DNA from: Methylocystis sp.
GTDB lineage: Bacteria > Pseudomonadota > Alphaproteobacteria > Rhizobiales > Beijerinckiaceae
Reading direction: 5' to 3'
Length of the DNA: 64,000 nucleotides
NCBI GenBank assembly: GCA_016178015.1
Contig: JACOUB010000058.1
Location: forward strand, 17,395 to 81,394
The translations under genes were made by a program, and so were the position numbers. Below, in pieces: positions 4,000 through 64,000 of this stretch (position 1 is the stretch's first letter; every line of letters starts with the position of its first letter). The notes under the pieces are model-generated. The model ran no database searches and was not told the origin of the DNA. It was given only the letters and a program-made list of their open reading frames with translations.

Positions 4000-4662
4000 T
4001 CACTTCACCAGCGGGGCGAGAATTTGGTTGAGGTCGGCGACGGTGATTTCGCCGGCGTACTTGTCGCCATTTATGAAAAAGGTGGGCGTCGAGCCGATGC
4101 CGAATTTTTCGGCGGCGCGATCGCGGACCTGGCTGACGTTCTCGTAAAGCTGACGGTCCTTCAAGGTGGTTTGGAAAACCTCCTGGCTCATGCCGGTCTG
4201 CTTGAGGACGTTGGCCAGCGCATCGAGAGGTTTCTCGACCGAGGCCCAGTTCTTCAGCTGAGCGAACAGCAGATCGACGACCGCGTCGCGCTTGTCGCCA
4301 GAGGCGCGCGCCAGCATGAATGCGGCCGTCGCCAGAGGATCGAGCGGGAATTCGCGCAAGATGAACTTCACCTTGCCGGCGTCGATGTAAGTCTTCTTCA
4401 GCGTGGGATAGACGTCTTTATGGAACGTCGCACAATGGCTGCAGGTCATCGAGGCGTATTCGACGATGGTGACAGGGGCGTCCGCCTTGCCCTCGACGAT
4501 GTCGGGGAGGGCGTTCGCCGCCATCAGTTCGTCTAAGGGGACTTTTCCGATCGCGGCCCTTTCCGCCAGGGCGGCGCCCGCGAATCCGACAATCGCCCAA
4601 CAACCAGCGGCCGCGATGATGGCGCGACGGGAGAGACGAGAACGAAGATTAGCCATGGTCAT
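4000..4662 (-). CDS. DsbA-family thioredoxin-fold protein
   Basis: EYASMTCSHCA (CxxC), FILREFPLD, GSTPTFFING; Arg-rich N-terminal signal. Confidence 0.92.
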   Translation of the reverse strand: MTMANLRSRLSRRAIIAAAGCWAIVGFAGAALAERAAIGKVPLDELMAANALPDIVEGKADAPVTIVEYASMTCSHCATFHKDVYPTLKKTYIDAGKVKFILREFPLDPLATAAFMLARASGDKRDAVVDLLFAQLKNWASVEKPLDALANVLKQTGMSQEVFQTTLKDRQLYENVSQVRDRAAEKFGIGSTPTFFINGDKYAGEITVADLNQILAPLVK

Positions 4663-7184: not shown

Positions 7185-9083
<1,899 letters not shown>

Positions 9084-9118
9084 CTACTGACGCTTCGAGC
9101 TATCGAGCGACTGCCGCG

Positions 9119-9206
9119 TTGGCCTTCCCTTCGCCGGCATGACCCGGATCAGGTTCGATGGGTGCTTCTCAGCCGCTCTCGTTGAGCGGCGCCCCTCGCC
9201 ATTCAA
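9119..9206 (-). ncRNA. TPP (thi-box) riboswitch
   Basis: Minus strand reads GGCTGAGAAGCACCCATCGAACCTGATCCGGGTCATGCCGGCGAAGGGA, directly upstream of thiC. Confidence 0.95.
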
Positions 9207-37707: not shown

Positions 37708-39162
37708 ATTTCAGACTCTGTCTCGCATCTGATTTCCAGCCCCCTGGACGAAACCGGCCAGGAGGCGAACCGAGCGTCGCCGGCGAGCGCGCCCGCCCAG
37801 GCAAAAGTCTTCGTCAAGTCTTACGGCTGCCAGATGAACGTCTATGACTCGGCCCGCATGGCCGATCTGCTCGCCTCCCAAGGCTATGCGGAGACCCGGC
37901 GCCAAGAGGATGCGGACCTCGTCATCTTGAACACCTGCCACATCCGCGAAAAAGCGGCGGACAAAGTCTATTCGGAGCTCGGCAAGCTCGCCGCGATGAA
38001 ACATGCACGCAGCGCGGCGGGGCGTGACATGCAGATCGTCGTCGCCGGCTGCGTCGCCCAAGCCGAAGGCGTCGAGGCGCTGCGCCGGCAGAGGGCGGTC
38101 GATTTGGTCGTCGGGCCGCAGAGTTACCACCGCCTGCCCGAACTTCTGGCGCGGACCGCGCGCGGCGAACGCCTCACCGACACGGAATTTGCGGTCGAAG
38201 ATAAATTCCAGTTTCTGCCGCAACCGACGCCGCAACAGATACGCGCGCGGGGCGTGAGCGCCTTCGTGACCGTGCAGGAGGGGTGCGACAAATTCTGCTC
38301 GTTCTGCGTCGTTCCTTACACGCGCGGCGCCGAAGTCTCGCGCCAGGTCGCACAGGTGGTCGCGGAGACGGAAGGCCTCGCGGCGGCCGGCGTGCGCGAG
38401 ATCACCGTGATCGGACAAAACGTCAACGCCTATCGCGGCGAAGCGCCCGATGGGCGCAAATGGCCGCTGGAGCGCCTGCTCGAACGCCTCTCGCACATCG
38501 GCGGCGTCGAGCGGCTGCGCTACACGACGAGCCACCCGATCGATATGTCGCAAGGACTCATCGACGCCCATGGCGCTCTGCCACAGCTGATGCCCTTCGT
38601 GCATCTGCCGGCGCAATCCGGCTCGGATCGCGTGTTGAAGGCCATGAACCGTCGCCACGGGGCGAGCGCGTATCTCGATCGCGTCGCGCGCTTGCGCAAG
38701 GCGCGGCCGGACATCGCGCTCTCGTCCGATTTCATCGTCGGTTTTCCCGGCGAGACGGACGCAGACTTCGAGGCGACGCTCAGCCTTATTCGCGAGGTCG
38801 GCTTCGCCGCCGCTTTCTCCTTCAAATATTCGCCGCGCCCGGGAACGCCGGGCGCCGAGCGTTCCGATCAGATCGATGAACAGGCAAAACGCGAGCGGCT
38901 CAGAGCCTTGCAAGAACTCATTGAGGCGCAGCGGCAGGCCTTCAACGCGGCGGCGATTGGGCGCGCCTTCGACGTCTTGTTCGAAAAAGCTGGGCGCCAT
39001 CCCGGCCAGATCGCCGGCAAAAGCCCCTATATGCAAGCGGTACATGTCACCGGCGACGTCGAATTGATCGGCGCCGTGGCAAAGGTGACGATCGTCGCCG
39101 CCGGCGCCAACTCGTTGGCGGGAAGATTGGCCGGCGGCGCGGCTAAGGAGAGGCGCCATTGA
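37708..39162 (+). CDS. miaB: tRNA-2-methylthio-N6-dimethylallyladenosine synthase; probable ATT start
   Basis: [42 protein letters not shown]; the conserved start lies upstream of the first ATG (37834). Confidence 0.95.
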
Positions 39163-40205
39163 CGACGATCGACGAGACGCGGCTCGCGGATGACGGGCGC
39201 GAATCGCAAGCCAACGACATGGAGGGCGCCGAGATCACTCTGGCTTTCGAGGACAATCGTTACGCTTCGCTGGTCTTCGGCCTCTATGACCAAAATCTCG
39301 CCAAGATCGAGCGCCGCCTGCAGGTCATCTGCTTCGCCAATGGCAATCACGTGACCTTAAAAGGCCCGGCGGACGCTTGCGAGCATGCGCGCCGCGTGCT
39401 GGAAATCCTTTATGGGCGCGTGCAGCTCGGCCAGACCGTCGGGCTTGGCGACGTCGACGGCGCCATTGAAGAATGTGCGCGGCAGCGCAGTCTCTTTCCG
39501 GAGGCGGAGACCGGGCGCGCCGTGTTCGAACACATCGGCACGCGCAAGCGCGGCCCGGTGCGCGCCCGCAATCTCGCGCAAGACCTCTATCTGCGCGCCC
39601 TCAAGCGCTATGAACTGGTGTTCGCGGAGGGTCCCGCCGGCACCGGCAAGACATGGCTCGCCGTGGGTCACGCCGTCTCGCTGCTCGAGCAAGGCGCCGT
39701 GGAGCGCCTCATTCTGTCGCGTCCGGCGGTGGAGGCCGGCGAACGCTTAGGCTTCCTGCCCGGCGATATGCGCGAAAAGGTCGATCCTTATCTGCGTCCG
39801 ATCTATGATGGCCTCCATGATTTCATGGACGCGCGCATGGTCGAACGCGGCATCCAGACCGGCATGATCGAAGTCGCGCCGCTCGCCTTCATGCGCGGCC
39901 GCACGCTCACCAAGTCATGCATTCTGCTCGACGAGGCGCAGAACGCCACCTCCATGCAGATGAAAATGTTTCTCACGCGCCTGGGCGAAGGCTCGCGCAT
40001 GATCGTCAACGGCGATCCGTCGCAACCCGATCTTCCGCCCGGCCAGAAATCGGGGTTGAGCGAAGCCATTGCTTTGCTGGCGGGGGTAGAGGGAATCGGG
40101 CGCGTCAGGTTTTCCGAGGGCGACGTGGTGCGTCACGATCTCGTGCGCCAGATCGTCGGCGCCTATGAGAGAGCCGGGCGCGAGAAATCCAAATCGGGCG
40201 CTTAA
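39159..40205 (+). CDS. phoH: PhoH-family ATPase
   Basis: [38 protein letters not shown]. Confidence 0.95.
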
Positions 40206-40206
40206 G

Positions 40207-40737
40207 ATGACCGTCGCAACGGACATTTCGGTCGCCGCTCCCGCCTGGGAGCAGCTCGCTGGGCTCGACGCGCTGACACAGCGCGCCGTGGAGCAATGCC
40301 TTGCAACGACGGGCGCAACGCTCGCGCCGGAATGCGAGCTCAGCGTGGTTTTCTGCGACGATGCGCTGATCCGCGCGCTCAACGCGCAATGGCGCGGCGT
40401 TGACCGGCCGACCAACGCGCTCGCTTTTCCGACGCCGGGCGACCTCGCCGCAAAGCCGGCGCTCGGCGACATCGTCATCGCCTATGAAACGCTGGAGCGC
40501 GAGGCGCGCCAACAGGACAAGACCATCACGGCGCATCTCACCCATTTGCTCATCCATGCATTTCTGCATCTAATCGGCTACGATCACGAAACCGCGCCAA
40601 GGGCCGAGGCGATGGAGGCGATCGAGCGGCGCGTTATGGCGGCGCTCGGTCGGCCGGACCCCTATGAGGGGACACAACCGATCGGCGACGACGCTGACCC
40701 AAACGGACGTATTGACGCCAATGCCCATGAAGCATGA
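40207..40737 (+). CDS. ybeY: rRNA maturation endoribonuclease YbeY
   Basis: LNAQWRG.D.PTN.L.F, LGDIVIA, HAFLHLIGYDH. Confidence 0.94.
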   Translation: MTVATDISVAAPAWEQLAGLDALTQRAVEQCLATTGATLAPECELSVVFCDDALIRALNAQWRGVDRPTNALAFPTPGDLAAKPALGDIVIAYETLEREARQQDKTITAHLTHLLIHAFLHLIGYDHETAPRAEAMEAIERRVMAALGRPDPYEGTQPIGDDADPNGRIDANAHEA

Positions 40738-41746
40738 GAACGACGCGGCGCCGGCCGGCGTCGAAAGTTTGAGCGAGCCGCAACGGCCTGGGCTCATCGA
40801 GCGTTTGCGCGCGCTCATCGGCCTCGAACCCGCTTCGGTGCGCGAGGATATCGAAGAGGCGCTGGAGGAGGCGACGGGCGACGTCACCCCTCAAGAGCGG
40901 ACGCTGCTGAAAAACGTCCTCGCCCTGCACGACCTGCGCGTCGCCGACGCCATGGTGCCGCGCGCGGCGATCGTCGCGGTCCGCCAGGACGCGACGCTCG
41001 GCGAAGTTCTGGCGGTGTTCCGCAACGCCGAACATTCGCGCCTGCCCGTCTACGGCGACACGCTCGACGATGCGCGCGGCATGGTCCATATTCGCGATTT
41101 CGTCGATTATCTCGCCTCGCGCGCCGAATGCGCCCAGGCGCCGGCCGCCACTGAGCAGAAGGCGCAACAAGGCGACGCCGCAACGGCAAGCGCAACAGAG
41201 CGCGCGCACGCCATTTCGCTGGCGGCGATCGATTTCCGGGCGCCGCTGGCCTCGACCGGCGTGCTCAGGCCCGTGCTGTTCGTGCCGCCGTCGATGCCAG
41301 CGCTCGATCTTCTCGTGAAGATGCAAGCGGCGCGCACGCATATGGCGCTGGTTATCGACGAATACGGCGGCACGCACGGCCTCGTCTCGATCGAGGACAT
41401 CGTCGAAATGATCGTCGGCGACATTGAGGACGAGCACGACGTGGGCGACGAACCGAGGATAGAGGCTGGCGACGACGGCTCGTTCCTTATCGACGCCAAG
41501 GCCAATCTCGAGGACGTGCACAAAGCGCTGGGCGCCGATTTTACGCTAAATGAAACCATTGCCGACGTGACGACGCTCGGCGGGCTGGTGGCCTCGCTGG
41601 CCGGACATGTTCCCGTGCGCGGCGAGATCGTGCAGGCGCCTATCGCGGGCTGGGAGTTCGAGATTCTCGAAGCGGATCCGCGTCGCGTCTCCCGCCTGCG
41701 CGTCCACGCGCCAGGAAAGGATGAGCCTGGCGACGCCCGCCCCTGA
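40721..41746 (+). CDS. corC: CorC/HlyC-family CBS-domain protein
   Basis: HSRLPVY, HMALVIDEYGGT.GLVSIED, GDIEDEHD. Confidence 0.92.
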   Translation: MPMKHENDAAPAGVESLSEPQRPGLIERLRALIGLEPASVREDIEEALEEATGDVTPQERTLLKNVLALHDLRVADAMVPRAAIVAVRQDATLGEVLAVFRNAEHSRLPVYGDTLDDARGMVHIRDFVDYLASRAECAQAPAATEQKAQQGDAATASATERAHAISLAAIDFRAPLASTGVLRPVLFVPPSMPALDLLVKMQAARTHMALVIDEYGGTHGLVSIEDIVEMIVGDIEDEHDVGDEPRIEAGDDGSFLIDAKANLEDVHKALGADFTLNETIADVTTLGGLVASLAGHVPVRGEIVQAPIAGWEFEILEADPRRVSRLRVHAPGKDEPGDARP

Positions 41747-41801
41747 AAAAGCGTGATCCTCTCGCGAAAGCGCACGACCTGCCGGGCGCTTTTTCAGCCC
41801 A

Positions 41802-43436
41802 TCAATATTTAACTGTCGTGCGCAACCCAAAAACCGCGGCGTCGCGGATGCGCCTTACGGCGAGGCTTGCGGGATCGATGGCGCCGCCGCCGGGATGGAA
41901 AATATATTGAAAATCCGGCTGAACGATCCACCCGGGAATAACCTGCGCCTGATAAGCGAGCTCGAGCGCAACTTCATCGTCGCGGATCGGAGAAGCGGTT
42001 TGGGCAAAAAAAGCGTTATCGCGATCGAGCCCTCGCAGCGACGACGAAATCTCCGAATAGGCCGCCGCCAAGCCAAATGCGTCGTCTGGCCTCGCGTCCA
42101 AAAGGCCCATGAAGTTGACGCCCCCCTCGGCATAAAAATCAATCATATTGCGGTCCGACGGACTTGCCGACAGCCGCGCGAAAACCCCGGCGCCCTTCTT
42201 GGGGGCGTCTGCGGACGCACGCCAGATCATCTGATCAATCACGCCATAAACGCCCCAATCGCCGCGATGCGGCAAAGGAACGCCATTGCTCGACGGATCG
42301 GCGAGCGAAAGAGCGTCTGTGCCGAAACGCTGATCGTCGAACCTGCTGAAATGGCGCCATACGCCGAGCTTGATGGTCCCGGCAAGGCCTGACGAGCTGT
42401 TGTCCTGATTGTGCTTGACTTGTGCTTCCCCGATCACGAATGGCGGATCCTTGAGTCGGAAATTAATTCCCGCCGGGTCCTTGAACTCCTGCAATCCCGT
42501 GAAGCGCGCCCCCGAAGGATCGCCGTTGAACGCGGCGGCGAGAAGGGTGATTTGATCATTCGGGCTCACTTTGAGACGCACGCCGGGCGTCGCCAGCGGG
42601 TAGGCCGGGCCGCCGCTCGGCAAATCTGCCGAGGTTATGTTGGGCCAGCCGAACGTCCCGTTGACATACAAGGCGCCGAGTTCGCTGATGAAGAATTCGG
42701 CATCGGCGGCCAACTGACCAACACGGATCGACGCTGCGTCGCCAAAAAGTTTCTGTTCAAGCCAGGCGTCGAACAGCCGCGTCGTCGCCCGCGCCTCGAT
42801 GCTGCTGATCGTCGAGAAGTTGAAAATGCAACAGGTGGAGAGACCCCGGCCGTGGATTTGATAGGCGTCGATGTGAAACGAGGCGCCGGTCAAACCGGCG
42901 ATCTTGTCGAGATCGCCGTCGACCGCCATTTCGAGCAGACCCTCGTAAATCGCGCCCCGCTTGACGCCGCCGCTGGGGTTGCCGAAGACCTCGCCGGTAT
43001 AATTGACTTGCAAATTGAAGCCGCGATCGAGCAGCGCCTTCTTGAAGTCCCCCAGCGCGGGAACGCTGGAGGAGATCGAGGGCTGCTCGCTTGCCGGCGC
43101 CGCTATGGATTCGCTTACATGCGCTGGCGAGGTCAACACGACCCGTTCTTCGCCGGTGAAGGTCCTGGTGCTCGACGACGTCACGGGCGCCGGCGCCAGC
43201 GCCGGAGCGGGTCGAGCGGCGCGAACCGGGGTTGGGCGTTGCGGCTTTGCAGTCCCGACCGTTCGTTTCGCTTTTGCAGCCCCGACCTCGATTTTCGGCA
43301 ACGGCGCCTGCGCGAGCGCCGCGGATGAAACGAGCGTCGCGACCAACGCGAACGCTCTCGCGCTCCGCAGGAGATTGAAACTCGGCACACGGGAACGCGG
43401 GCCGCTACTTACGGCTCTCGAGATCGGGGACTGCAT
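41802..43436 (-). CDS. OprB-family (carbohydrate-selective type) porin with an unusual N-terminal extension
   Basis: YTGEVFGNPSGG, SIRVGQLAADAEF, GWP...SADLPSGGPAYP..TPG, VQPDFQYIFHPGG, terminal GLRTTVKY. Confidence 0.92.
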   Translation of the reverse strand: MQSPISRAVSSGPRSRVPSFNLLRSARAFALVATLVSSAALAQAPLPKIEVGAAKAKRTVGTAKPQRPTPVRAARPAPALAPAPVTSSSTRTFTGEERVVLTSPAHVSESIAAPASEQPSISSSVPALGDFKKALLDRGFNLQVNYTGEVFGNPSGGVKRGAIYEGLLEMAVDGDLDKIAGLTGASFHIDAYQIHGRGLSTCCIFNFSTISSIEARATTRLFDAWLEQKLFGDAASIRVGQLAADAEFFISELGALYVNGTFGWPNITSADLPSGGPAYPLATPGVRLKVSPNDQITLLAAAFNGDPSGARFTGLQEFKDPAGINFRLKDPPFVIGEAQVKHNQDNSSSGLAGTIKLGVWRHFSRFDDQRFGTDALSLADPSSNGVPLPHRGDWGVYGVIDQMIWRASADAPKKGAGVFARLSASPSDRNMIDFYAEGGVNFMGLLDARPDDAFGLAAAYSEISSSLRGLDRDNAFFAQTASPIRDDEVALELAYQAQVIPGWIVQPDFQYIFHPGGGAIDPASLAVRRIRDAAVFGLRTTVKY

Positions 43437-43564
43437 GCAAGGACTCGCAGCAAACGTGGGCCGTCACTGCGAAGGGTCTCTGCCCACCCGGCGGCGATGA
43501 CGCCCGGCATGGGTTTCGGCCGCCTCGGTGCACCCCGCCCGACGCTTTCGCGCGTGACCACGAA

Positions 43565-43745
43565 CGATGGCAGGTCTCCTGGCTCGCGGGTCGTCGCCTC
43601 GGACCGCCTTCCCAGGAACGCGCTCGTCCCAGTGGCCTATCGGTCATCGGCTGGCCGCTCACAGTTGCGGGGGCAGCTGCGGCATCGCGCGCATCGAAGC
43701 GCTCACCGCATTCCCATTTGATCCCTTAAAGGGAACCATCGTTTC
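43565..43745 (-). ncRNA. Cobalamin (AdoCbl-type) riboswitch
   Basis: Minus strand: GGTTCC...GGGAATGCGGTG...GCCGCAGCTGCCCCCGCAACTGTGAGCGG...GCCACTGGGA...CTGGGAAGGC...GCGAGCCAGGAGACCTGCCATC. Confidence 0.95.
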
Positions 43746-43868
43746 CATTTGACACGCTGATCGCCTAATGGTCAAGGCGCCGGCGCACGATTGGCCAAGC
43801 GTCAAACGGCCACTAGGGCATAGCGCGCAAACTGGCTAAAGTCGAAGCCGCTGATTCGACGGTGGTCC

Positions 43869-45527
43869 ATGGCGCAAACAACCACGACTTTCGAGCGCGC
43901 CGGCCGCTGGCCGGGTTTATCGCTGGCCCAGCGCGTCATCCTCAGCGAGGGCTGGACGCGCCGCGCCATCGCCTGTTGTGCCGGCGCAATCGGCGCGCTG
44001 GCGCTGGCGCCGGTGGATTTCGCGCCGGCGATGCTCGCGCCGATGTGCGCAGCGGTGTGGCTCATTGACGGCTCGGCGACGGCGACGCATGGCGGCGGCT
44101 CGGGTTTTATGCGCGCCTCGGCGGCGTCCGCCGCCGCGGCCGGTTGGTGGCTCGGCTTCGGCTATTTTCTCGCCGGGCTGTGGTGGCTTGGCGCGGCGCT
44201 GCTGGTCGAGGCGGATCAATTCGCATGGGCGCTGCCGCTCGCCGTGCTCGGCGTCCCCGCGGGGCTGGCGGTTTTCACCAGCCTCGGCTTCGCCTTGGCG
44301 CGGCTCTTATGGTCGTCCGGTTCGCTGCGCGTCTTTGCGCTCGCCGCGGGCCTCGGCGCATCCGAATGGCTGCGCGGCCATCTCCTCACCGGCTTTCCCT
44401 GGAACGACTTCGGCATGGCCCTGGCGGGGCCTCTCGTCTTCGCCCAAGCGGGGGCGCTCATCGGTCTTTATGGACTGGATGTCTTGGCGATCATCGTCTT
44501 CGCGGCGCCCGCGACGCTCGTCAACGCCGCCGCGCCGCGCCGGTTCGTCACGCCGGCGCTGGCGGCGGCGCTGGCGGTTCTGGTTGCTTTGACGCTCTTC
44601 GGGGCGTTGCGGCTCAGCCGTGGCGAGACCGAATTCGTCGACGGGGTGCGGCTGCGCCTGATGCAACCGAACTTGCCGCCGGACGCCAAATTCAAAGCGG
44701 CGAACGGCCCCGACATCGTGCGCCATTATCTCGCCCTCTCGGATCGGGCGACGACGCCGGAACGCGCCGGCGTGGCGGACGCAACGCATCTCGTTTGGCC
44801 CGAGTCGGCCTTCCCCTTCGTGCTGTCGCGCGAGCCGCAGGCGCTTGCCCAGATCGCCCGAGTTCTGCAAGGAAAAACGCTCATCACCGGGGCGGCGCGC
44901 GTCGAAGAAGCCCGCTTCGCCGGCGCCGGCGCAACGCAACGCACGAAAATCTACAACTCGATCGAAGTTGTGCAGGGCGGCAAGATCGTCGCCGCCTATG
45001 ACAAGATTCATCTGGTTCCGTTCGGCGAATATCTGCCGCTCGCCTCGTTGTTGGGCCCGCTCGGCGTCAACCATCTTGTTCCCGGCGTCTGGGACGAAGG
45101 CAGAGGGGCGCGGCGGCTGATCGCGCCCGGCCTGCCGCCGATGGCGCCGCTCGTCTGCTACGAAGCGATCTTTCCCGGCGAGGCGGCCCCGCCGGATGCG
45201 GACAACGCTCGCCCGCAACTGCTGCTCAACGTCACCAACGACGGCTGGTTCGGCAGGACGAGCGGTCCATACCAGCATCTGGCGCAGGCAAGGCTACGGG
45301 CGATCGAAGAGGGTCTGCCGCTGGTGCGCGCCGCCAACACCGGAATCTCGGCGCTCGTCGACCCTTATGGCCGAATTCTGGAGCAATTGCCGCTGGGCGT
45401 CGAAGGCGTCCTGGATGGCCGGCTCGCCAAGGCGCTGCCGGCGACGCCCTTCTCGACGCATCCAAATTTGTGGCCATTAGCTCTTTGGTTCGCCGCCGCC
45501 ATGCTCGCGGCTGCGGGTCGCCGTTAG
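43869..45527 (+). CDS. lnt: Apolipoprotein N-acyltransferase
   Basis: GFPWN, VWPESA, YDK.HLVPFGEYLP, CYEAIFP, NVTNDGWFG, RAANTGIS. Confidence 0.97.
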   Translation: MAQTTTTFERAGRWPGLSLAQRVILSEGWTRRAIACCAGAIGALALAPVDFAPAMLAPMCAAVWLIDGSATATHGGGSGFMRASAASAAAAGWWLGFGYFLAGLWWLGAALLVEADQFAWALPLAVLGVPAGLAVFTSLGFALARLLWSSGSLRVFALAAGLGASEWLRGHLLTGFPWNDFGMALAGPLVFAQAGALIGLYGLDVLAIIVFAAPATLVNAAAPRRFVTPALAAALAVLVALTLFGALRLSRGETEFVDGVRLRLMQPNLPPDAKFKAANGPDIVRHYLALSDRATTPERAGVADATHLVWPESAFPFVLSREPQALAQIARVLQGKTLITGAARVEEARFAGAGATQRTKIYNSIEVVQGGKIVAAYDKIHLVPFGEYLPLASLLGPLGVNHLVPGVWDEGRGARRLIAPGLPPMAPLVCYEAIFPGEAAPPDADNARPQLLLNVTNDGWFGRTSGPYQHLAQARLRAIEEGLPLVRAANTGISALVDPYGRILEQLPLGVEGVLDGRLAKALPATPFSTHPNLWPLALWFAAAMLAAAGRR

Positions 45528-57288: not shown

Positions 57289-59943
57289 ATGGGGGCGGTC
57301 GATGAAATCCTGGATTGGTCCGCGACCAAGCTGACACCTTGGCGTCAAGACGCACTTCGCCGACTGGCAGGCTCATCTGCGGTCACTGCACAAGACGAAA
57401 GCGAACTGCTTGATCTGATCAAAGAGAAAGCGGGCTTTCCTCTGGCCGCAAAGCCACCGGCGCCGACGCCGTTGACCAAAGCTCACCTCTCAGCCGTCAC
57501 GAGCGGATCACCTCTCCAGATCAAAGGCATTCGTAACGTCAAGAACGTCAACCGACTCGTGCCGGCGGCCGCACTGGTGTTCGCGCCCGCCGGGCTGACC
57601 GTCGCCTACGGACGGAACGGCAGCGGCAAAAGCGGCTTCGTCCGCATTTTTCGCACCGCCTGTCGCACCCGCACTGACAATCCAGCCAAGCTCAAGGTGT
57701 TGGCTGATGTCTACGGCTCGGGCGGGGGGCCTCAGGAAGCGGAGATCGTCGTCGACCTGGGCAGCGGCGATGTCGTCGTGCCTTGGACCGCCGGCGCGCC
57801 CGCCTCGGAGACCCTTTTGCAGGTCGCCGTCTTCGACAGCAGCGCAGCCCAATTCTATGTCGACGGCGGCAATCAGATTCAGTTTCTTCCGTTCGGCCTC
57901 GCCCTGCCTCACAAGCTCAACGAGCTTTGCCTCGCCCTCAGGGATAAGCTGGACGTTGAGCGCAGGCCCATCACTGATCAGATCGCCCTCGTCACCGTGG
58001 CCTTCGAGACGCCCAGATCGACGAAGGCCCAGACCTTCTACTCCGGCCTCAGCGGCAAGACGACAGATGCGCAGATCGGCGCAGTGGCCACGTTTTCACC
58101 GGATGACGAGAAACGCATTGACGAGTTGACGCGTCTGCTTGCCGCTAACACCGCCTCGGCAGCAGACGTGACCGCGCTTTCCACATGGGTCCAAAACCTA
58201 GCGTTCGAGTGTGCCAGCCTTGATCAGGCATTCAGCGACACGCAGCTCGACGGATATCGCACCCTCAAGCAACAGGCCATCGACGCGCGGACAGCCGCAG
58301 GCACAAAGGCGGCTGATCTCTTCTCAAGCGAGCCTCTCCCTGGTGTCGGTGGTGAGACCTGGCGGCGGCTGTGGCTTGCTGCCCGCGACTATTCAATCGC
58401 GGACGCCTATGCCGGCCGCGAGTTTCCCGTCCTCAGCACGCCGGACACGACCGAGACCTGCGTTCTTTGCCAGCAACCGCTCGGCGCTGAAGCGTCGGAC
58501 CGCATGGGCCGCTTTCAGGCGTTTGTCAGTGGATCTCTCGCTGAAACTGCTGACCAGGCTGAAACGGTGGTCACCCAGGCGATCACGTCCCTGCCCCGGA
58601 TCGAGATCTTCGCGTCGAAGGAGTGGGCGACCCGGCTCGAACAGATCCGTAAGCGCAATGCGGAACTAGCGAATACGCTCACGTCCTTCAGGAAAGACAT
58701 GGAAGCCAGACGCGCTATCGCCCTGGCCTCGCTCCAGACTGTTGAGGCAACACCGCCTCCCTTAGCCGCCGGCGCTCTGGTCTCCCCGCATAGCACCTTG
58801 CAGGACTTGTCAGCGCTTCTGTCCGCCGAAGCCGAGGCCTTGGCGAAGGCCGATCATAGTGGACAGCGCGCGAAGCTGGAGGCCGAGCGGTCTGAGCTCG
58901 CCGATCGCAAGATCCTCACGGCAGGCCGCGATCGCGTGATGAAACGCCGGGACCTTCTCAAGGAGGATGCGCTTTACACCGCAGCGCTTGCTGAGGTTCA
59001 GACGAAGGGCATTACCCAAAAGGCAAATGAACTCGTCGATACGCATCTGACGAAGATCGTGACAAACCATTTCGAGGTGGAACGCAAAACTTTAGAAATT
59101 ACGCACCTCAAGGTCGGTTTGGCGCGAAAGAGCGGACAGACCAAGGCCGCATTCCAAACCAATCCGGGCACCACGCTAACAAAATTGACCTCCGATATCC
59201 TCAGCGAAGGCGAGCAGCGCGCGCTCGCACTTGCGGCATTTCTAACGGAAATCGCTGTGACGGAAGGAGCCGGCCCGATCGTGATCGACGATCCTGTTTC
59301 ATCCTTGGACCGTGATCGCGGATTGAAGGTCGCAGCCCGCATCGCGGCCGAGGCGCAGAAGCGCCAGGTAATCGTCTTTACGCACGACCTGATCTTCTTC
59401 AACGACCTATGCCGAGAAGCCGATGATCTCGGCGTTGCGACCGAAACGATCGCCCTCTTCGCCGACGGCGCCAATGCGGGCAAGGTCGATCCCGCCGGGG
59501 TGTCGTGGAAAGGGCTGAGCGTGAGCAAGCGCCTTGCACGGATCCGGAACGACTTCACGCCGCTGAAGAAGCTCCACACGTCGAGTCCGTCGGACTACGA
59601 ATTCAAAGTGAAGCACCTCTATGGGCGCCTGCGAGACAGTTACGAGCGCCTCGTGGAGGAACACATCTTTTGCGACGTGGTCCGGCGCGGCGTCGACAGG
59701 ATCGAGACGCAAAAGCTGCGCATGGTGCATCTATCCGACGCGCTCGCGATTCGATTCCACGACGGCATGACGAAGGCGAATACCCACAGCCATGACAATC
59801 CGGCGTCAGACACCGTCTCGGTCCCGGATCCGGCCGAATTCGAAGCCGACTTGGCCTTCATCGAGCAGCTCATCACAGACCTCAAAGTGGAAAGCGCCTC
59901 GGCGGAAGGCAACCGTCCCAGCATGAAGCCGAAAAAGGATTAG
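57289..59943 (+). CDS. Rad50/RloC-like ABC ATPase with coiled coil, zinc hook and C-terminal helical domain
   Basis: GRNGSGKS, CVLCQQ (CxxC), LSEGEQR, IDDPVSSLD, FTHD, C-terminal KANTHSHD. Confidence 0.85.
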   Translation: MGAVDEILDWSATKLTPWRQDALRRLAGSSAVTAQDESELLDLIKEKAGFPLAAKPPAPTPLTKAHLSAVTSGSPLQIKGIRNVKNVNRLVPAAALVFAPAGLTVAYGRNGSGKSGFVRIFRTACRTRTDNPAKLKVLADVYGSGGGPQEAEIVVDLGSGDVVVPWTAGAPASETLLQVAVFDSSAAQFYVDGGNQIQFLPFGLALPHKLNELCLALRDKLDVERRPITDQIALVTVAFETPRSTKAQTFYSGLSGKTTDAQIGAVATFSPDDEKRIDELTRLLAANTASAADVTALSTWVQNLAFECASLDQAFSDTQLDGYRTLKQQAIDARTAAGTKAADLFSSEPLPGVGGETWRRLWLAARDYSIADAYAGREFPVLSTPDTTETCVLCQQPLGAEASDRMGRFQAFVSGSLAETADQAETVVTQAITSLPRIEIFASKEWATRLEQIRKRNAELANTLTSFRKDMEARRAIALASLQTVEATPPPLAAGALVSPHSTLQDLSALLSAEAEALAKADHSGQRAKLEAERSELADRKILTAGRDRVMKRRDLLKEDALYTAALAEVQTKGITQKANELVDTHLTKIVTNHFEVERKTLEITHLKVGLARKSGQTKAAFQTNPGTTLTKLTSDILSEGEQRALALAAFLTEIAVTEGAGPIVIDDPVSSLDRDRGLKVAARIAAEAQKRQVIVFTHDLIFFNDLCREADDLGVATETIALFADGANAGKVDPAGVSWKGLSVSKRLARIRNDFTPLKKLHTSSPSDYEFKVKHLYGRLRDSYERLVEEHIFCDVVRRGVDRIETQKLRMVHLSDALAIRFHDGMTKANTHSHDNPASDTVSVPDPAEFEADLAFIEQLITDLKVESASAEGNRPSMKPKKD

Positions 59944-61924: not shown

Positions 61925-64000
61925 TCATGCAACCAGCGACTCACGTCTCAATTCGTGAATTTGTGCGTCGGGAACAATGTGTCGGGCCGCTTCGATCACG
62001 TAGTCGTGGTGCGTGAACAGGATTACTTGGGTATGACGCGCGAGCTCCGCTAGATACCGAATGCCCGCCTCAGTGCGCACTGCATCCGACGAAGCGAACA
62101 AGTCATCGGCAAGAAAGGGCATCGGCTCGGAGTCGCGAGCACGCAGCTCTAGTGCGGCGATCCGGAGTGCTAGCCAGAGCTGGTCGCGCGTACCCTCGCT
62201 CATCGCCTCCACACGACACGCGACGCCGTTGGCGCGCAGTGCGATCAGACGCGGATCGTTCGGCTTTTGATAGTCAACATCGAGCTTATTGAAGTCGTCC
62301 GGCGGCTGACTGCCAGCGATCGAAATAAAGATTTCGTTGGCACGCGTGACAAGCGGGCCCTCGTTGGCCTGGCGATAGCTCTCAACTGCCTTGTCGAGCA
62401 GGGCCGCCGCAGTTGTGAGTCGCATCCAACGCTGCGTAAGCATACTGACCTGCGCCGCCTCGTTGCGCGCTGTATGGGTTGCAGTCAGGTAGCCCTCCCG
62501 GCCTTTTAGCTGCTCTAGCGCTCGCAGCGCCTGCTCCCGCACGCGGACGGCCTCCTCCAAGTCTGTGTCGAGCCGGATACGGTCGGTCGCATTGAGATTA
62601 ATCGCTTCGCGAAGCTGGTCGCGATCGGCAGCGGCCAATTCGCTGCGCAAGCCTTCCTCGGCGATGCCCTCGCCGGCCTCAACGAGCTTCCTGAGCTCTG
62701 TCTCAATTCCGTCGGCAAGCAGGCGCTTACGGTCACTGCTGGCGATCGTCACGATCACATCCTCATCAGCCGTAAGGTGAACCTCGTTCCTGAGCCGCAC
62801 GCAGGCAGCATCAGCGAGGCTTTGGTCCTCGTCGGCTGTTTTCGCGGTCTCCCGGGCGTCGATCAGATTTTTTTCGGCTGTTTTAATTTCTTGGGCGAGG
62901 CCCTTCGCGACCTGCAGGGCCCTGTACAGCGCAGCTGGCCATGCATGCCATTCGCCACCTGGATTGAGATTCGCGACTACCTCAGCGCCGAGCGTCTCCA
63001 GCACTGCATCGACAGCATCCCGATGGCTTTTGATATCTTCTCGGATGCCCTTCAGCAGGCGCTGTGCCTCCGCGCGTCGACCGACTTCCTTAGCGAACAG
63101 ATCCCATATCCCGAGGATGGCAGTCGCTTCCTCTGGCGTAGACCCGGGCGCCAAATTGATGGTTGGCATCTCCGTGACCCAGCGCGCGCGCCACTCAGCC
63201 AAGCGCTGCTCCGCGGTGATGACGGCATCGTCAGCACGCTGATATTCTTTGGTTCGGCGTAAGATCGCGCCGCGTAGCTGACCGGCCTTCGTCCAACGTT
63301 CAGTCGATCGCGTAACAGCCAGATTCACCCGTTGCTCCGCGACCTCCGAATCATCGCCCGCCGCCACCGGTGCACCAACCAGCACCGCAGCCCGCTGAAG
63401 ATGCGCCCACGCCGTTTCGAAAATCGCCCTCGCTTGATCTCGCTCCGCTTCGGCCGCTCGGCGGGCATCGATCCCCTCAAGGATTTTATCCTTCCGCCCG
63501 AGCCAAGTGAGCATGAGTTCGGGTGCGTCGATTTCACCGGCGAACCCCGTTCCAGCCCACAGCTCTCGCCAAGCCTTCTCGTCAGCCCCTTGGCGAGCAA
63601 CGGCATCATCTTGCGCTTTTCGGGCCAAGCCGAGCGCCTGATCGAGACGCGAGCGCTCGATTTCGATACGTTTCTGTTGCGCCAGCAGTTCGGCGCCTTC
63701 GACCCGGTGATCAACGAGATCATCCGCGGCGCGCAAGAGCCCCTCGTAGCCGTCAAGCGTGTTGAACGGGCTTAGCCTCCCTGCCGCCGTATCGTGGCGA
63801 ATGGCTATCCAGCTCTCGTCTCGCTCGCCCCTTGCCAAACGCACCGCATTGGACGTCGGAACGGCAGCTCCCAAGCTAAGATCCTCAAGGTCATTCTTGT
63901 GGCGTTCGATTTGGGCTTCCAGATCTGCGATGCGCTTGTCAGCAGCGTCCACGGCTCCGACGCTCCTATCAAGTTTGACCTTCGCCGCCCGAACCGCGTC
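61925..64000 (-). CDS. YhaN-like AAA/SMC-type ATPase, C-terminal part; start lies outside the window
   Basis: Long coiled coil; MSEGTRDQLWLALRIA, PFLADDLF, TQVILFTHH; frame open to position 64000. Confidence 0.88.
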   Translation of the reverse strand, partial: DAVRAAKVKLDRSVGAVDAADKRIADLEAQIERHKNDLEDLSLGAAVPTSNAVRLARGERDESWIAIRHDTAAGRLSPFNTLDGYEGLLRAADDLVDHRVEGAELLAQQKRIEIERSRLDQALGLARKAQDDAVARQGADEKAWRELWAGTGFAGEIDAPELMLTWLGRKDKILEGIDARRAAEAERDQARAIFETAWAHLQRAAVLVGAPVAAGDDSEVAEQRVNLAVTRSTERWTKAGQLRGAILRRTKEYQRADDAVITAEQRLAEWRARWVTEMPTINLAPGSTPEEATAILGIWDLFAKEVGRRAEAQRLLKGIREDIKSHRDAVDAVLETLGAEVVANLNPGGEWHAWPAALYRALQVAKGLAQEIKTAEKNLIDARETAKTADEDQSLADAACVRLRNEVHLTADEDVIVTIASSDRKRLLADGIETELRKLVEAGEGIAEEGLRSELAAADRDQLREAINLNATDRIRLDTDLEEAVRVREQALRALEQLKGREGYLTATHTARNEAAQVSMLTQRWMRLTTAAALLDKAVESYRQANEGPLVTRANEIFISIAGSQPPDDFNKLDVDYQKPNDPRLIALRANGVACRVEAMSEGTRDQLWLALRIAALELRARDSEPMPFLADDLFASSDAVRTEAGIRYLAELARHTQVILFTHHDYVIEAARHIVPDAQIHELRRESLVA

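Follow-up and report, generated by a model that had tools for sequence, protein, structure and literature searches.

How a porin comes to begin like a TonB-dependent transporter (TBDT), and what such a beginning might do for it, is the question raised by one gene of a Methylocystis sp. (contig JACOUB010000058.1; the window is the whole stretch of DNA analysed, 64,000 nucleotides in length). The open reading frame at 41802-43436 (-) encodes 544 amino acids, with 43140-43436 coding for residues 1-99. TonB coupling is thought to be proper to plugged 22-strand transporters and imported bacteriocins, and porins are the textbook passive alternative. A sequence-only reading of this DNA had likened the front end of the protein to that of a TBDT and proposed either a deletion that fused the 5' end of a B12-regulated receptor gene to a downstream porin or a real TonB-box-bearing porin. 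The N-terminal strings on which it relied were all present in 43140-43436, in the order MQSPISRAVSSGPRSRVPSFNLLRSARAFALVATLVSSAALA, QAPLPKIEVGAA, KAKRTVGTAKPQRPTPVRAARPAPALAPAP, VTSSSTRTFTGEE, RVVLTSPAHVSESIAAPASEQ and PSISSSVPALGDFKKAL, with signal peptide cleavage between MQSPISRAVSSGPRSRVPSFNLLRSARAFALVATLVSSAALA and QAPLPKIEVGAA. What is new is an OprB porin of chimeric make-up, in which a regulatory and N-terminal module derives from a TBDT. The whole explanation, an ancient chimera of a TBDT 5' module and an OprB barrel that is repressed by B12 and whose selected motif would link the porin to the Ton system, is held with moderate confidence.

The product is an OprB family member and not a TBDT, since a Plug domain and a 22-strand barrel were both looked for and neither was found. 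Pfam gave OprB (PF04966) alone, at residues 159-543 with an E value of 3.6e-92 and 310.1 bits against a cut-off of 22.9; the Plug domain (PF07715) was not matched even at E<=1 and the TonB_dep_Rec barrel (PF00593) was not found. An AlphaFold2 (AF2) model based on 120 homologues has 16 strands, not 22, with a mean predicted local distance difference test (pLDDT) value of 78.6 and values below 50 at residues 44-112, and its top Foldseek match is the P. putida OprB 4GEY (E 1.1e-33; template modelling score TM(target) 0.84). The protein therefore resembles the carbohydrate-selective OprB porins (PF04966; 4GEY) in family profile and predicted barrel, and differs from them by an added TBDT-derived extension of about 55 residues with a TonB-box-type strand and by a cobalamin riboswitch. 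The Pfam search of the extension gave neither a domain nor a peptidoglycan-binding signature. In the literature, no OprB porin was found that bears a TonB box or is controlled by a cobalamin riboswitch, nor any characterised OprB with either. The public protein P0001 (460 amino acids) begins at the GTG of Val85 (43182-43184). Because this start leaves no signal peptide, and because the ATG at 43436 is the start common to all related leaders, P0001 is mis-started, and the call cuts away the signal peptide and motif and severs the gene from its riboswitch. The only sequencing runs in which the sequence occurs are DNA runs of groundwater metagenomes.

The B12 regulation implied by the sequence-only reading was borne out by a full-length cobalamin riboswitch aptamer (Table 1), which ends 115 nucleotides upstream of the ATG on the strand of the porin gene. 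When the 334-nucleotide leader of the window gene was compared by blastn, the nearest sequence was the leader of a TBDT gene, L081 (85.9% over 304 nucleotides), followed by the TBDT leaders L128, L131 and L130 at 81-82% and then by the porin leaders L002 at 79.8% and L006 at 76.8%. Within the expression platform, the identity was 78% between the window and L081, 83% between L002 and L081, and 72% between the window and L002. A block just before the ATG is common to three porin and five TBDT leaders. A scan of Joint Genome Institute metagenomes for this block (CCTTCG..CAGTGACGGYCMACG.TYGCTGCGAG) gave four matches, each followed by BtuB-like TBDT sequence: L129 and L131 were confirmed by Pfam (Plug and TonB_dep_Rec), L130 is nearly the same as L131, and in L128 the contig edge leaves a fragment of 88 residues with a TBDT-type N-terminus.

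The likeness continues into the coding sequence. The starts of the porin P0005 and the TBDT L081 read MPSQPLKSARRSSS and MPSQSLKVANGNSSS, respectively, and the porin signal peptide aligns to those of BtuB-like TBDTs in a profile test. A hidden Markov model (HMM) from five TBDT N-termini, tested on 492 sequences (seven porin N-termini and 485 controls), placed the seven porin N-termini as the top seven, at 10.8-29.7 bits, against top scores of 8.3 bits among 275 other OprB N-termini and 7.8 among 210 shuffles. As far as sequence comparison goes, these results show homology between the 5' ends of B12-riboswitch BtuB-like TBDT genes and five parts of the porin gene (riboswitch, leader, first codons, signal peptide and motif), and this match of all five is the reason for proposing a chimeric origin.

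It is highly improbable that an ordinary, variable OprB extension merely looks like a TonB box by chance. TonB boxes are short, and the TBDT matches expected from a generic search with the N-terminal profile did not appear at E<=10, so that only the targeted profile of TBDT N-termini shows the relationship. The likeness of TSSSTRTFTGEE to the start of a plug, which the sequence-only reading had pointed out, is at chance level as well: the segment is specific to the window and missing in relatives, 246 of 500 shuffled linkers score at least as well, and an HMM of the TBDT box and plug start was not significant against shuffled linkers even in the best case (P0005, 19 of 500), so that this assignment was rejected. 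Chance does not account, however, for leader DNA that is 80-86% identical to TBDT leaders, for a platform motif seen only with TBDTs and these porins, or for the separation of the porin N-termini from all 485 controls by the HMM. Two further candidates were set aside. MAFFT had placed the segment VL[RS]SPxH opposite the plug motif DVLRGVPG, but this segment has its counterpart in the mature N-termini of motif-less paralogues; and the peptidoglycan-linked N-terminus of alphaproteobacterial outer-membrane proteins, with its Ala-Asp start, does not match the motif. A recurring [TA]P.R past the porin motif may be a vestige of TPDR and is too short to count.

The leader also suggests why a riboswitch should have brought protein sequence with it. 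In the consensus fold of eight leaders, columns 45-52 pair with columns 154-162 with the AUG inside: GGGG(U)GCA just past the aptamer is matched to the AUG and codons 2-4, and CUGCGAG lies within a hairpin. In the window, GGGGTGCA is predicted to make this pairing. The leader showed no intrinsic terminator, and the covariation behind the fold is thin, with most pairs invariant and a compensatory change in only two. From the predicted fold, sequestration of the start codon by the platform is inferred. Such pairing would explain at the RNA level the conserved M-[PQ]-S start, and it would explain why capture of the riboswitch takes coding sequence along.

The same front end was found in a small group of porins. 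The 120 best homologues of the window protein are overall 'carbohydrate porins' of Beijerinckiaceae type, and among them six full-length proteins (P0002, P0003, P0005, P0006, P0051 and the window's own) have Q-[EA]-x-L-P-x-[IVM]-x-[IV]-[GR]-[AG] right behind the signal peptide. P0030 has the motif too, on a piece cut off by an in-frame stop in contig L007, and the intact form of its gene is P0287 (566 amino acids); P0028, the eighth lineage, has the motif as LPTVEIGAAHPV across a frameshifted assembly. In the P0030-type gene the stop lies just past the motif (…KHAVN*RLPH) on two contigs of one sample (L007 266-1966; L132), and P0287 from another sample reads …KHAVNQRLPH (L133 1367-3067); the stop could be an assembly error or a strain-level nonsense mutation. 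The eight lineages share 57-74% identity, form one clade in a neighbour-joining tree of the barrel and sit in differing genomic contexts. The nearest named relatives of the clade are Beijerinckiaceae, and the closest sequences are annotated as 'carbohydrate porin' in Methylocella, Methylocapsa and Methylocystis. The motif occurs in none of 150 diverse representatives taken from a 50%-identity library and is missing from about 270 other OprB relatives, and a profile search with the N-terminus and barrel start gave 12 matches and no new motif-bearing member. In the sequences compared, the 5' module is thus shown to be confined to a single porin clade.

That OprB-like sequence starts late in the protein, as the sequence-only reading had observed, was confirmed: homology to other OprB relatives begins at about residues 98-119, and in the best 15 of 231 records of plasmid-borne homologues the alignment starts only at residue 102. 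The motif-less paralogue P0004 has the mature N-terminus VQTTPATSGESAEAPTSGQPSISSS, which aligns with VVLTSPAHVSESIAAPASEQPSISSS, and the segment VVLTSPAHVSES…PSISSSVPALGDFKK of the window protein begins at residue 99. Alignment thus shows the junction to lie at about residues 97/98. Since the likeness to motif-less paralogues sets in only near residue 98, the porin's native signal peptide was exchanged for a longer front end of foreign origin. In the ancestor of the clade, the captured TBDT module would have run from the aptamer through a start-codon-sequestering platform, the first codons and the signal peptide to the first N-terminal strand of TonB-box type.

The idea of a deletion joining a receptor 5' end to a porin was therefore upheld in its chimeric TBDT origin and not in its date. 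That a recent deletion in this genome joined the 5' end of a btuB gene to an adjoining porin, as an accidental and possibly non-functional fusion, is extremely improbable. The locus does look rearranged, because the porin is inverted within the phoH-ybeY-corC-lnt cluster and somewhat lower in GC content. Yet the same architecture recurs in eight diverged lineages of one clade and in different contexts, no TBDT remnant adjoins the gene, the frame is intact and the barrel is conserved; because those lineages carry the same fusion, it is old and not the product of a recent deletion here. A tandem of riboswitch, TBDT and oprB, from which such a deletion might have started, was not seen at L131, where no oprB lies downstream of the B12-regulated TBDT. 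Directly after that TBDT stands a DUF7676 gene (L131 4598-5203 (-)), a candidate accessory protein of its uptake system.

A cobalamin riboswitch stands upstream of the window gene, P0051 (L002/L003), P0005 (L006) and P0028 (L134). It was not found at P0003 (L001, 1.2 kb upstream searched) or at P0287/P0030 (L133), and the 194 nucleotides available upstream of P0002 (L004) gave not even a partial match; P0006, on a contig without upstream DNA, lies outside this count. Because riboswitch-positive genes occur in every main branch of the clade tree, the riboswitch is taken to be ancestral and to have been lost at least twice. Some neighbours of these porins may be recorded here. Mobile-element-like genes surround both the riboswitch-less P0003 (Recombinase, MT-A70 methylase and HTH_17; L001 1-13653) and the riboswitch-less P0002 (AAA_25; L004 2364-3362), and the porin may travel on mobile elements. 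In the branch of P0051 and P0028, a gene for a B12-binding radical SAM protein (DUF4070) is convergent with and directly 3' of the B12-riboswitch porin (L002 3814-5379 (-); L134 6751-8211 (-)), and in L134 a tRNA gene (4130-4202) lies just upstream of the riboswitch.

The losses bear on what the motif is for. It may be supposed that only regulation was captured, that is, that the TBDT 5' module brought B12 control and a working signal peptide, that coding sequence had to come along with a platform whose pairing takes in the AUG and codons 2-4, and that the motif is a passenger without TonB function. This supposition is regarded as doubtful. It agrees with the predicted reach of the platform into the start codon and first codons, with the canonical BtuB-like box and the plug being gone or degenerate, and with an extension that is disordered and has no plug to actuate. 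A passenger lying 130 nucleotides past the platform should nevertheless have decayed like the linker, which is unalignable among relatives and variable in length. Instead, the motif is kept in all eight lineages, including the three without the riboswitch; signal peptide and linker have changed so far that they can no longer be aligned, and the codons of the motif vary synonymously in the seven lineages where this was seen. This pattern points to purifying selection on the peptide on its own account, independent of the riboswitch, and a TonB-box-bearing porin is consistent with a motif conserved even where the riboswitch is lost.

The motif itself is found at the mature N-termini of TBDTs, which agrees with the likeness, noted in the sequence-only reading, of LPxIxVG to the TonB-box segment of Methylocystis-type receptors. 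One genome per species was scanned at the DNA level with a degenerate pattern corresponding to A-Q-[EDA]-x-L-P-x-[IVM]-x-[IVM]-x-A, giving at least 120 matches; in the window the pattern has one match (43279-43310 (-)) versus 0.00 expected from shuffles. Among the matches listed, to which the following counts apply, 22 lie in N-terminal context, at the start of a long open reading frame and behind a signal-peptide-like segment (21 by a distance filter, and L034); they are 19 TBDTs, one TolB and two chance hits. Pfam confirmed 14 of the 19 TBDTs (Plug and TonB_dep_Rec), and the other five are four near-identical Janthinobacterium copies and L034, which groups with the Cupriavidus TBDT L106. Four TBDTs come from Methylocystis or Methylosinus; Gly occupies the variable position in four, two of them from Methylocystis (for example Methylocystis sp. 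JAN1, AQEALPPIEIGAAQRARSSEPHP); and two, L081 and L058, have a cobalamin riboswitch. About one quarter of the matches are an unrelated internal motif of CzcA/CusA type (AQERLPSILMTA). No OprB was among them, in a scan that cannot count motif-bearing porins in genomes.

In five FhuA/FhuE-like TBDTs (L016, L028, L038, L118 and L121) the motif is the sole TonB-box candidate, at the position that the TonB box has in E. coli FhuA. The B12-riboswitch BtuB-like TBDTs (L081 from 7094, L129, L130 and L131 5222-7303 (-)) have two strand motifs in tandem, Q-E-x-LPGIxIG and [ED]xVVTP[DT]R, possibly a double TonB box. In such donor-type TBDTs the second box, ETVVTPDRVEEP, follows 1-17 residues past the motif and resembles DTLVVTANRFEQP of E. 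coli BtuB; it is lost in the porins. The motif was also met outside both families. A TolB from a Binataceae metagenome-assembled genome (L098 555-1883 (+); Pfam TolB_N and PD40) has AQESLPPMLITAAP, of the same motif class as the TBDT boxes, at its mature N-terminus, which in TolB is the TolA-binding strand. The metagenomic P0272 (182 amino acids), an unrelated small secreted protein, has AQAQETLPTVDVGG behind its signal peptide (E 0.49, not significant), which places the motif on at least one protein that is neither TBDT nor porin.

Such occurrences raise the thought that the motif is functional and serves another partner, which might be a paralogue resembling TolA or TonB, a chaperone or protease of the periplasm, or an envelope tether. 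The TolB case favours this, as does the retention of the motif beside a canonical box in BtuB-like TBDTs, which hints at a separate role, and there are other OprB barrels with an N-terminal module in the periplasm, for example the SLH module in cyanobacteria (PMC8707739). It is considered unlikely, given that the motif is the only TonB-box candidate of the five FhuA/FhuE-like TBDTs, at the E. coli position, and that the extension shows no Pfam domain or peptidoglycan-binding signature.

For the chimeric, Ton-linked porin that is preferred here, the following course is proposed. When adenosylcobalamin is scarce, the riboswitch would free the start codon and the porin would be made. After cleavage, Q-x-x-LPxIxVGA would be exposed in the periplasm below an ordinary 16-strand channel, on a disordered tether about 45 residues long, where it most likely docks TonB's C-terminal domain; this docking would join a B12-repressed channel to the Ton system. 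How TonB might act on a plug-less barrel can be pictured in several ways, and gating, positioning or mere recruitment are all conceivable. The B12 regulon serves cobalt and corrinoid uptake. By analogy with this regulon and with the OprB-domain porins of Synechocystis, which have been implicated in inorganic iron uptake (PMC8707739), the porin probably takes up cobalt or a small corrinoid precursor, the more plausible cargo for a 16-strand pore, and less likely B12 itself. A plug-less, TonB-docked and possibly TonB-gated resident porin, induced under B12 limitation for the uptake of cobalt or corrinoid precursors, is put forward tentatively, as a possibility short of even odds.

Several points weigh against a Ton-linked, B12-controlled porin. 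Binding of the motif to TonB is putative, AF2 giving only disorder there, and by Pfam the porin is without a plug domain on which TonB could pull. In the BtuB-like class the retained motif may not be the TonB-binding strand, and it may have another partner, because those TBDTs carry the second, more canonical box that the porins have lost. Three lineages are without the riboswitch, which makes the B12 link a non-obligatory one. The known lineages number only eight, every one of them from a metagenome, and several of the assemblies are prone to error. Finally, a profile of the extension alone, run against 5.8 billion proteins, gave two weak matches and no TBDT at E<=10, with a profile so short and low in complexity that the family members themselves were not returned.

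Table 1. Parts of the riboswitch-porin unit, with positions in the window
Feature	Positions	Strand	Basis
Cobalamin riboswitch aptamer	43552..43755	(-)	RF00174, 133.4 bits vs gathering score 31.5, E 2.2e-33, full model 1-189
Expression platform with conserved block CCTTCGCAGTGACGGCCCACGTTTGCTGCGAG (43444-43475)	43437..43551	(-)	Leader comparison, consensus fold
Signal peptide, residues 1-42	43311..43436	(-)	Read from sequence; predicted cleavage ALA/QA (…VSSAALA/Q)
TonB-box-type motif QAPLPKIEVGAA, residues 43-54, mature N-terminus	43275..43310	(-)	Conservation across lineages and TBDT N-termini
Disordered Pro/Ala/basic linker, residues 55-97, including VTSSSTRTFTGEE (85-97)	43146..43274	(-)	pLDDT <50
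Porin-type mature N-terminus, residues 98-139, VVLTSPAHVSES...PSISSSVPALGDFKKALLDRG, helix 126-137	43020..43145	(-)	Alignment to motif-less paralogues; helix from AF2
16-strand OprB-type beta-barrel, residues 140-544, and stop codon	41802..43019	(-)	Pfam, AF2, Foldseek

In the window, the riboswitch-porin unit stands opposite in orientation between corC (40664-41746) and lnt (43869-45527) of the phoH-ybeY-corC-lnt cluster (39159-45527), and the GC content of the barrel region is 58-62% versus 64-70% in the neighbours. Because of this orientation inside the cluster and the lower GC content of the barrel, insertion of the unit by horizontal transfer is suggested. Elsewhere in the window, a thiamine pyrophosphate riboswitch (RF00059, 65.4 bits, 9108-9206 (-)) lies upstream of a 610-residue open reading frame at 7185-9017 (-), presumably a thiamine biosynthesis gene such as thiC. 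Two large open reading frames for ATPases of AAA_13/SMC_N type, at 57289-59943 (+) and 61925-63952 (-), could belong to a defence or DNA-repair system.

Compared with the BtuB-like TBDTs (L081 and L128-L131; archetype E. coli BtuB), the porin has in common the aptamer, the pre-ATG platform motif, the opening codons, the signal peptide and Q-E-x-LPxIxIG, and is without their Plug domain, 22-strand barrel and second box (ETVVTPDR). TonB-dependent colicins and other bacteriocins, as well as TolB with its TolA box, are alike in a short N-terminal strand on a disordered segment that docks an energised periplasmic protein; the former are imported toxins and TolB is a periplasmic protein, whereas the window protein is a resident outer-membrane channel. 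The cyanobacterial SLH-OprB porins (for example Synechocystis Slr1908 and Slr1841) also combine an OprB barrel with a periplasmic N-terminal module, but theirs is a cell-wall-binding, folded SLH domain and that of the window porin consists of a short strand motif, derived from a TBDT, at the end of a disordered tether. Their implication in inorganic ion and iron uptake is a precedent for a micronutrient role (PMC8707739). The porin Tsx and TolC are without a TonB box (review PMC11658791).

The case shows how a riboswitch can pass to a new gene: with a platform predicted to pair with the start codon and first codons, capture would have to fall inside the coding region and would drag N-terminal protein sequence along. 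The automatic annotation 'carbohydrate porin', together with the truncated N-terminus of the window gene, hides both the B12 regulation and the chimeric front end. A porin with an inherited TBDT strand is a natural test of a TonB box without a plug, and of whether docking to the Ton system moves between barrels as a module. If the TonB coupling is real, the finding amounts to considerably more than a chimeric OprB porin: a TonB-docked porin would be the first barrel other than a TBDT shown to use TonB.

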